The position numbers were made by a program, and so were the translations under genes. Under the pieces are notes generated by a model. It saw only the letters and a program-made list of their open reading frames with translations. It was not told where the DNA came from and searched no databases. DNA of 64,000 bases from Elusimicrobiota bacterium. Lineage in GTDB: Bacteria > Elusimicrobiota > Elusimicrobia > Elusimicrobiales > UBA9959. Where the stretch lies: positions 104,035 to 168,034 of the forward strand of contig WOVA01000001.1 of NCBI GenBank assembly GCA_009773155.1. The letters are read 5' to 3'. Each line of letters starts with the position of its first letter. Position 1 is the stretch's first letter. Of this stretch, positions 19,279 to 20,934 are shown one piece after another.

Positions 19279-20934
19279 TCACCGGGCGCCTCCGCTGACG
19301 CAGGCGGAATGGCAGGCGCCGTGGCAGGCCGAATGGCAGGCGCTGTGGCAGGCAGAGTGGCACGCGTCGTGACAGGCCGAATGGCACGCGTCGTGGCAGG
19401 CGTCGCGCCCGAAGGCCCCCTCGTAGCAGGACTTCGAGGTCCTGAAGGTCGCGAAATCCAGGGCGGCGGCGTCGCCGAGCGAACCTTTCAGCCCCTCGCC
19501 GACGGCGGCGGAATTATCGTAGCGGCTGTCGTCGAGGCGCAGGAAGCGGCGCCTGTAGCCGCCCCAGTACCAGCCTTGATCGGTCCCGGGGCCGGCCGGG
19601 ACGTCGGTCTCGGCCTTTTTCCTGTAATAGGCCTTCGTCTCCTCCAGGTCGGCGTCCCAGATCTTCTGCTCCATACCGGCCGCTATGCTTTTGACCATCT
19701 CTTTAAGCGCGGGCTCGTCCACCGAGCCGTCCGGCTTTATGCCGCCGAGCAGCAGCGTCTCGTAAGGATCGTTGCTGGCGTAGATATGCGGCGGCTTGCT
19801 CACGCGCAGCGGGTCGGTGCCGGTTATCTTAACCAGCCCCTTGCGCTCCATGTTGCCCAGTATCAGCGCGCCCAGTTCGATCAGCGGCAGGCCCAGTATC
19901 ACGCCCGCCTCTATGGGGCTGAGGTCCTTTGCCACCTTGCCCGGCTTGCGGAAAGAGCTGACCTGCGCCTTGGGCGGCTCCCATTCGGTGCCCTCCCAGT
20001 TGACCTCCGAGATGCCGGCCTGCGCCACCAGCATGGAATTGTGCTTGCGCGTCATTATGACGAAAGGCAGCACGCCGAAGAAGACGGCGAAGATCAGCGC
20101 CAGGAAGAGGGTCTCGCCGCGGCTGACCGGGACCGTGGCCAGTACGCCGCCGGGAAAATAGCGGCCAAGGTAATAGCTCTCCGGCGCGGCCCTCCAGGGA
20201 CCTTTCGGCGTGCCGGCCAGCAGACCCGCGGAAGCCATCGTCTGCAGATCGAACACGCCGGCGTCCATATAGGTCTGCGTGCGCATGTGGAACTTAGCGC
20301 CGGCGCCCTTCCTGTGATAGCGCACGGTGAACAGCCGCTCGCCGGCCTCGTTGACCGTCTCGGGATAATCGATGAGGTAGCGCTCGTTCACGAATTTTTC
20401 GGTCATGAACGAGAGACGGGCCGCCGCGGCCTCGCCGGTCTCGCCGGGACCGAGCGGCACGGGATAGACGACCTTCACCGTCATATGCTCCAGCGGCTCG
20501 TCCCACTGCACCGGCGACCAGTTGAAGACCGCCAGGCGCCTGTCGCCGGCCATGGTCTGGGTCAGCGTGCCGGCGGCCTGAAAATCCGCCGTGTAGCGGA
20601 AGAAGAAGGTAATGTCGCCGCCGCCGAACCCGCGGCCGCCGGCCAGGACGATATCGTACTTGCGGCCCGACAGATGGCTTATGTCCAGGCTGTAGCGCTC
20701 GCCGCGGTCGTCCACGGCGTAGGCGCCCGCGCGGTCGAACAGCGGCGGCTCGGCCGCGCCCTCGAAGTAGAAGGCGTGTATCTCGCGCCCGGTCACGCCC
20801 CAGCGCACTGTATAGGCCACCTGGCCGCGCCCGTCGCGGTCCAGGACCACCTCGGTCTCGGTCCATTTAAGGTCGTAGCCGGCCGACGCCAGAGAAGGCA
20901 GGCAGAATAACAGGCAGAAAATCAGTTTTTTCAT
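19279..20934 (-). CDS. Signal-peptide/TM protein (DUF2207-like architecture) ending in a C-terminal (Ala-Cys-His-X)x8 repeat tail
   Basis: Start at [18 protein letters not shown] (ATG 20934, GAGGGG upstream). One clear TM helix ([19 protein letters not shown] then RKH). [11 protein letters not shown]...MERKGLVKI region. C-terminus is [43 protein letters not shown]. Confidence 0.75.
   Translation of the reverse strand: [551 protein letters not shown]
19300..19401 (-). repeat. Tandem 12-bp coding repeat (about 8.5 units) encoding ACHX tetrapeptides
   Basis: Plus-strand periodicity gcaggcNNaatg/gtg is visible across 19300-19401. Translates on the minus strand to [34 protein letters not shown]. 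Confidence 0.9.

Follow-up and report, generated by a model that had tools for sequence, protein, structure and literature searches.

Radical S-adenosylmethionine (SAM) enzymes with a SPASM domain have mostly been studied on short peptides, which become diffusible natural products or cofactors. Several families of such target peptides have been defined in silico by Cys-Xaa-Xaa-Xaa repeats (TIGR04117 or Syntroph_Cxxx, TIGR04114, and TIGR04118 of the AC3_0185 family), and their chemistry is uncharacterised. The substrates of the ACGX system (TIGR04340 enzyme) form a further family of small repeat peptides. In freyrasin, the enzyme PapB introduces six thioethers into the six CX3D motifs of PapA (PMC9413430). 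A precedent for several Cys thioethers in a retained protein is QhpD, which cross-links Cys residues within QhpC, the gamma subunit of quinohemoprotein amine dehydrogenase, and this subunit stays functional (PMC10114670). We analysed a stretch of 64,000 nucleotides, called the window here, from an Elusimicrobiota bacterium (assembly GCA_009773155.1, contig WOVA01000001.1, positions 104,035 to 168,034; all coordinates below are those of the window). It carries three consecutive minus-strand genes, A, B and C. Gene B encodes a radical SAM/SPASM enzyme, and its apparent substrate is the repetitive tail of a conserved membrane protein of ~550 residues, the product of gene A. We estimate a probability of about 0.65 that the tail is modified by B and kept on A.

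The tail is encoded at the 3' end of gene A, on the minus strand and in frame with the open reading frame (ORF) at 19279..20973. Tandem Repeats Finder and codon-by-codon reading gave eight in-frame 12-bp units coding for Ala-Cys-His-X (19401..19306), with D, S, D, S, S, S, G and S as successive X residues. These are followed by an ACVS unit (19305..19294), the residues GGAR (19293..19282) and the stop codon (19281..19279). The tail has nine consecutive Cxxx units, with nine Cys and eight His in 36 residues. The segment ACVS-GGAR plus stop (19279..19305) represents a terminal motif found in all 129 complete tails of the family (consensus ACVS[GS]G[GAS][HR]-COOH), in which Val and never His follows the last Cys. 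Ser accounts for 66% of the 967 X positions, Asp for 23% and Gly for 10%.

Like the peptides of TIGR04117, TIGR04114 and TIGR04118, the tail consists of tandem period-4 repeats with one Cys per unit and is encoded beside a radical SAM/SPASM gene. Compared alone with NCBIfam, it scored 13.9 bits with TIGR04117 (cutoff 50), and 8.0 (20) and 7.4 (35) with the other two, which is below the curated cutoffs of all three, and the whole A protein gave no match to them. Unlike these short peptides, whose models span 18-98 positions, the carrier is a membrane protein of 551-564 residues, and in its tail an invariant Ala and His flank each Cys and the end is fixed (ACVSGGxH). The Ala-Cys-x-X repeat of the ACGX system also has period 4, is one residue off (His for Gly) and has a radical SAM/SPASM partner as well, but B scored 73.1 bits against the TIGR04340 cutoff of 400 and falls outside that family. 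PapA and the SCIFF-type ranthipeptides, in which the SPASM enzyme adds one thioether per Cys motif, have the period-4 Cys spacing too. In contrast to PapA, there is no invariant Asp/Glu acceptor at the X positions of the tail; unlike PapA/PapB and the ranthipeptides, the cassette is without short precursor, protease and exporter, and B is no closer to their enzymes than to other SPASM families.

With the enzymes of sactipeptides and ranthipeptides, which are peptides made by the ribosome and modified after translation (RiPPs), B shares the CX3CX2C motif and a SPASM auxiliary-cluster domain, whereas a protease or exporter for leader removal was not found, only A, B and C being conserved. QhpC differs from A in being a small periplasmic subunit with non-repetitive sites, and the likeness between B and QhpD lies in the enzyme type. 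The body of A is laid out like DUF2207 (PF09972) proteins, with signal peptide, beta-sandwich ectodomain, transmembrane (TM) helix and cytoplasmic part; ordinary DUF2207 proteins are not known to have a Cys/His repeat or a radical SAM partner. Judged by sequence, the cassette appears akin to the Cxxx-repeat targets of radical SAM/SPASM enzymes while belonging to none of their families, and the fusion of the repeat to a large conserved membrane protein sets it apart. Literature searches (DUF2207 with radical SAM, ACGX, and Cys-His or CxxxC repeats with SPASM or RiPP) yielded no description of it, and no Pfam or NCBIfam family covers it.

Of the 114 tail-bearing loci for which 1.4 kb or more of downstream sequence was available, 113 had B directly downstream of A in the same orientation, the median gap being 12 nt. 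In the window B starts 27 nt past the stop codon of A, behind the ribosome-binding site GGGGGAG; a radical SAM gene thus adjoins the tail gene, as expected from the maturase that the first-pass annotation of this DNA had invoked. The start of C overlaps the end of B by 23 nt. A gene C was recognised behind B in 94 of 102 loci, and at least one of the apparent absences is in fact a divergent copy (locus L128). The protein identities of A and B dropped in parallel among relatives (82/88, 55/61 and 35/45%), as expected for a co-inherited unit. Since the flanking genes differ from context to context in many phyla, A-B-C is the conserved unit, and A is predicted to be co-transcribed with B and C in one operon. 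The tail-less relatives P0115, P0199 and P0201 had no B downstream, on short contigs. In P0128 and P0199 (L140), an A-like N-terminal part is fused to a C-like domain (hhalign probability 97%), and both tail and radical SAM gene are missing. These fusions may be a Rosetta-stone sign that A and C act together as proteins; alternatively, that in P0128 may result from an operon-internal deletion or a misassembly.

Homologs of A numbered 20 in a set of 5.8 billion proteins and 682 representative clusters (E<=1e-3) among 1.84 billion proteins, and 210 GTDB species genomes contained relatives. As labelled by their submitters, these genomes belong to Elusimicrobiota, Omnitrophota, Planctomycetota, Acidobacteriota/Aminicenantes, Hydrogenedentota, Armatimonadota, Gemmatimonadota, Calditrichota, Cloacimonetes, Nitrospiraceae, Bacteroidota and Firestonebacteria, and also to Clostridia, including the cultured Acetivibrio mesophilus, A. 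straminisolvens and A. alkalicellulosi. A-B-C is an uncharacterised, widespread cassette, present in at least 210 species-level genomes from many phyla. The PADLOC models of anti-phage defence gave no membership for A, B or C beyond the generic radical SAM core: A had only a spurious Csm3 hit (E 0.003), B only generic viperin (pVip) matches to this core (76 bits, weaker than its AhbD and NirJ scores in NCBIfam), and C no match.

The number of units was stable among close relatives. L142 and L143, independent assemblies of the same strain made from other samples, were identical to the window over the 4,084 bp of the A-B-C operon, repeat included, and exactly eight units occurred in all eight relatives at 72-90% protein identity (L001, L006-L009, L086-L088). 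In the 27 Elusimicrobia tails of the same length, down to ~53% identity, the X residues largely kept the order D-S-D-S-S-S-G-S position by position; 13 of these tails were identical to that of the window and the others differed at one or two codons. Codon differences from the window tail in these 27 genomes comprised 305 synonymous and 17 non-synonymous changes. Lineages at ~55% identity retained the Ser codon classes and the position-specific X residues. Such a pattern marks orthologous units, each specific to its position, that would be under purifying selection and not in slippage turnover.

Over the family, 123 of the 129 complete tails (95%), from many phyla, had 7-10 units (7 in 60, 8 in 48, 9 in 10 and 10 in 5), and the remaining six had 2-5. 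One of these six spans an N-gap. The rare short arrays may be assembly collapses or other artefacts, since several assemblies break or have N-gaps inside the array: contigs L010 and L030 end within it and L048 carries Ns. P0112, with two units, is likewise doubtful, its sister lineage L110-L113 having ten. Tail length does differ between deep lineages (2-10 ACHX units), on the timescale of phyla and families. More distant members (P0228, P0231, P0238, P0235, P0209) have variant tails with ACVHD insertions between ACHS units and other C-terminal ends (ACVSKF, ACVEGAF, ACVARGQ); P0238 also has a C-D-S-S/C-H-S-S repeat extension. Metagenome matches to the tail only (L134-L138) were discarded as unrelated simple DNA repeats read in other ORFs.

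The DNA of the array has little of a microsatellite. With a period of 12, Tandem Repeats Finder placed it at 19300..19402 (8.6 copies, 65% matches); a period of 24 gave 19300..19401 (4.2 copies, 85% matches and a score of 141). The eight ACHX units share 7-11 of 12 bases pairwise (58-92%), and as few as 5 of 12 with the terminal ACVS unit. Exact matches extend over at most 8 nt at offset 12 and 14 nt at offset 24. Four codons are used for Ser (TCG, TCT, TCC, AGC) and two for His (CAC, CAT). Identity is 0.83 at offsets 24 and 48 compared with 0.62 at 12 and 36. The last codon is GAC, AGC or GGC in odd units but TCN in even ones, an alternation also seen in related species. This 24-bp super-period suggests an old duplication of an 8-residue di-unit that would have been frozen since. 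The perfect long tandem tract expected of a contingency locus or slippage-prone coding microsatellite was not found in the array, which is a poor slippage substrate.

These data bear directly on the first-pass annotation, which had proposed a slippage-prone array whose unit number could vary between strains. The in-frame 12-bp repeat at 19300-19401 and its Cys/His-rich product were confirmed by repeat finding and ORF reading, while the description of the units as nearly identical was an overstatement. Comparison of the repeat number in relatives had been set beforehand as the test of variability, and on the sequence side the number proved essentially invariant: the same-strain assemblies were identical, the close relatives all had eight units, and synonymous changes far outnumbered the others. 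What stands of the proposed variation is the difference between deep lineages; none was seen among close strains. The tail appears to be an ancient periodic motif whose length is fixed and which purifying selection maintains at the protein level, and not a mutational hot-spot.

Gene B (17893..19251, minus strand) encodes 452 aa and matched the radical SAM family PF04055 with 99 bits. Its CX3CX2C motif lies at aa 122-129 (18865..18888). The C-terminus, scanned alone, matched the SPASM family PF13186 (25.9 bits; cutoff 21.5) and has the full SPASM Cys pattern at aa 337-421 (17989..18243), including CX2CX5CX3C at aa 408-421. All NCBIfam scores were far below the cutoffs (AhbD 130/500, NirJ2 120/500, GeoRSP 101/400, PqqE 98/381, ACGX system 73/400), which places B in no curated subfamily. 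Its nearest relatives in the PDB were the thioether-forming SkfB, then BlsE and PqqE. An N-terminal extension of B (aa 1-105; 18937..19251), with the pattern W-[IV]-D...P-Y-x-x-V-R-x-x-D-x-L-L-I-K-x-P-N-x-A-x-K-L-N...G...F-F, resembles a RiPP recognition element (RRE). Its profile aligned in register with PqqD (hhalign probability 56%, E 1e-4; PqqD query sequence entered by hand), and sub-threshold PDB matches included the RREs of the lasso-peptide proteins TfuB1 (E 0.1) and TbiB1 (E 1.6). Pfam gave no RRE hit in B. The profile comparisons are suggestive of an RRE.

Gene A (19279..20973, minus strand) encodes 564 aa as longest ORF and 551 aa from a second ATG at 20934, 13 codons downstream of 20973. 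The second ATG is likely the true start because it is preceded by the ribosome-binding site GAGGGG, gives an N-terminus (MKKLIF...) like those of the relatives and agrees with the 551-aa gene call in L143. Hydropathy and an AlphaFold2 model (predicted local distance difference test score, pLDDT, 74) indicated a type-I membrane protein with a signal peptide, a beta-sandwich ectodomain (aa 32-237) and a TM helix at approximately aa 285-310, followed by Arg-Lys-His. The cytoplasmic part was modelled as a domain at aa ~340-511, with a winged-helix-like unit (aa 353-392) and a helical domain reaching to about aa 511, and then the tail. The tail had a pLDDT below 50 and no confident structure; a second hydrophobic stretch was modelled inside the soluble winged helix-turn-helix (pLDDT ~88). 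The tail is predicted to be cytoplasmic, within reach of B, because the signal peptide is followed by one strong TM segment and then by Arg-Lys-His.

Foldseek searches were informative for the ectodomain only, which resembled the luminal domain of ribophorin I/Ost1 and the N-domain of M1 aminopeptidases (E 1e-9 to 1e-6). The window protein had no Pfam hit even at E<=10, PF09972 included, and no NCBIfam hit. Two of its homologs, P0013 and P0016, carry PF09972; P0013 (E 6.5e-91 to A) scored 27.4 against the gathering threshold of 24.4. By homology and predicted fold, A appears to be a diverged, DUF2207-like membrane protein of type I. For the tail, a sequence search of the PDB gave no match, and no solved structure resembles it. 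Just before the tail, a motif F-x-x-F-R-[ST]-x-x-x-C-Y-E-G-[AP]-F (aa 507-521; 19411..19455, minus strand) is kept in Elusimicrobiota and Omnitrophota; it is a candidate docking ('leader-like') segment.

Gene C (16890..17915, minus strand) encodes 341 aa with four TM helices and a cytoplasmic alpha/beta domain (AlphaFold2 model, pLDDT 81). It belongs to no known family, and Foldseek against the PDB found nothing significant (best match a YbjN/type III secretion chaperone-like fold, E 0.05). A protease role for C was considered and is unlikely: no His is invariant in C, and the divergent L128 copy has Ala in place of the conserved Cys243.

We infer that B modifies the tail because the tail is of fixed length, strongly selected, apparently cytoplasmic and tied by gene linkage to a SPASM enzyme that probably has a peptide-binding domain; anatomy, conservation, linkage and domain identities are observed, and the action of B, its chemistry and the final function of the product are deduced. 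We further suggest that the tail stays attached, since protease and exporter are both missing from the conserved cassette and a folded membrane protein would have to act as the 'leader'. B would dock on the C-terminal region of A through its RRE-like domain and, with its radical SAM cluster and SPASM auxiliary clusters, would install one modification per Cxxx unit. By analogy with other Cys-repeat SPASM substrates, the most probable modification would be a thioether cross-link from Cys sulfur to carbon, an assignment that we make tentatively and with less confidence than that of the tail as substrate. Still joined to A at the membrane's inner face, and probably with C, the modified, His-studded tail would then serve as a rigid or metal-binding module.

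Several points weigh against this proposal. L071 has a tail with no B nearby, a convergent sigma-54 regulator following A there, and the contigs of the tail-less relatives are short. Gene linkage alone is no proof of an enzyme-substrate relation. The RRE assignment is below significance (hhalign 56%, PDB E-values of 0.1-1.6, PqqD query entered by hand). The scores of B against thioether maturases are no better than those against AhbD, NirJ and PqqE, which makes the thioether assignment tentative. Known thioether chemistry gives the invariant His and Ala no obvious part; metal binding by the modified tail, or a different chemistry, may account for them.

An alternative reading leaves the tail unmodified. 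The tail could bind metal or Fe-S clusters as it is, with B acting elsewhere (on a cofactor, a lipid or protein C) and the linkage reflecting a shared pathway. The density of nine Cys and eight His in 36 residues speaks for this, as does the invariance of His when known thioether chemistry needs none, and the top NCBIfam scores of B, all far below cutoff, are with the cofactor enzymes AhbD and NirJ2. We nevertheless consider it unlikely: it is hard to reconcile with B following 113 of 114 tails directly, the tail-less relatives examined were without B, the SPASM domain and N-terminal extension of B are typical of peptide-modifying enzymes, and free cytoplasmic Cys-rich tails of fixed period are typical substrates of this enzyme class (TIGR04117-type; PapB, PMC9413430). 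Metal binding, which the first-pass annotation had set against enzymatic modification, is compatible with it and probably not an alternative to it. Release of the modified tail from a 500-residue 'leader' as a small Cys/His natural product would follow the general logic of radical SAM/SPASM RiPP clusters and would fit the presence of a conserved motif before the tail. It is quite improbable in our judgement, because the conserved cassette has no protease or exporter amid flanking genes that differ in every context, the 'leader' would be a conserved and folded protein that sits in the membrane and bears an ectodomain, C is a poor protease candidate, and the fusions of the A N-terminal domain to C in P0128 and P0199 point to joint action of A and C as proteins.

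Two further explanations start from the repeat itself. If the array were a slippage-prone in-frame microsatellite, the number of Cys-His units would vary between strains or within populations, as at a contingency locus. A period that is a multiple of three and the range of 2 to 10 units across the family, as in P0112 compared with L110-L113, would fit. We regard this as very improbable given the imperfect units with their short exact runs, the constant count in the same-strain assemblies and the eight close relatives, the conservation of X residues and Ser codon classes at ~55% identity with the excess of synonymous changes, and the concentration of 95% of tails at 7-10 units when low counts may be artefacts. 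Each pair of units also forms a C-H-x-A-C-H string, and thus a CX3CH haem-c attachment motif that can be read directly from the sequence; the best sub-threshold NCBIfam matches of B are to radical SAM enzymes of the haem pathway. Yet a tail carrying covalent haems is hardly credible. Attachment of haem c is extracytoplasmic, whereas the tail is predicted to be cytoplasmic, behind a single out-to-in TM helix; 7, 8 or 9 units give no constant number of complete motifs; and the matches to AhbD and NirJ, with 120-130 bits where the cutoffs are 500, amount to generic SPASM similarity. In addition, many carriers, for example Acetivibrio and Elusimicrobia, are not known for cytochrome-c biogenesis.

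Other reading frames cross the repeat. A plus-strand ORF of 1018 aa (17854..20910) overlaps genes A and B and was rejected as a shadow ORF of GC-rich DNA. An alternative-frame ORF of 44 aa on the minus strand (19253-19387; RLPFGLPRRLPF...) overlaps genes A and B and is likewise a shadow ORF of GC-rich, repetitive DNA. The same wrong-frame reading (RLPQRLPLGLPQ...) also occurs in the database proteins P0127 and P0219, from which it follows that some public gene calls of the gene A family are frameshifted across the tail. Both of these relatives have a Gly-rich stretch before the tail, a feature typical of DUF2207 proteins.

Around the cassette, the intergenic DNA upstream of gene A contains a perfect inverted repeat of 27 nt (GGGACGCTGATTACTAAATGATTAATT; 20987-21081), the arms of which are 41 nt apart. 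A second copy with one mismatch per arm is found ~39 kb away (60388-60471), and the palindrome looks like a small dispersed element, similar to repetitive extragenic palindromes or miniature inverted-repeat transposable elements. Divergent from gene A, a plus-strand gene (21099-21506) encodes an ACT-pair protein, and an ACT gene occupies the same position in L003, of the lineage at ~55% identity. Beyond it, minus-strand genes encode a 203-aa membrane protein (21577-22188) and a DUF6901 protein (22185-22865; PF21842, 251 bits). In two distant relatives, a gene of ~210 aa with two TM helices and a coiled coil overlaps the start of gene A (L005 5363-6004; L139 1014-1637); neither the window nor the Elusimicrobia contexts have this gene. 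In the L110-L113 lineage, with its 10-unit tails, C was not detected after B. The ORF following B in L111 (6607-7068) is, by eye, IS200/IS605-like (Y1 transposase/REP-associated type), and this arrangement may be a local rearrangement.

For annotation, the locus shows that in-frame 12-bp repeats are not necessarily hypervariable, the array in the window being frozen by selection. If the tail is modified in place, chemistry of the RiPP type would extend to the permanent modification of membrane proteins, and one motif repeated eight times would offer a simple substrate for working out a possibly new Cys/His modification. In its boldest form, which we consider speculative and on balance rather doubtful, the cassette would be a 'RiPP on a protein': B would turn the (ACHX)7-10 tail into an attached, cross-linked Cys/His ladder, a metal- or redox-active module working with C, by a chemistry that may be new and may involve the invariant His or Ala. 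If this is true, the attached module could, for example, connect an extracytoplasmic binding domain with intracellular metal or redox chemistry.

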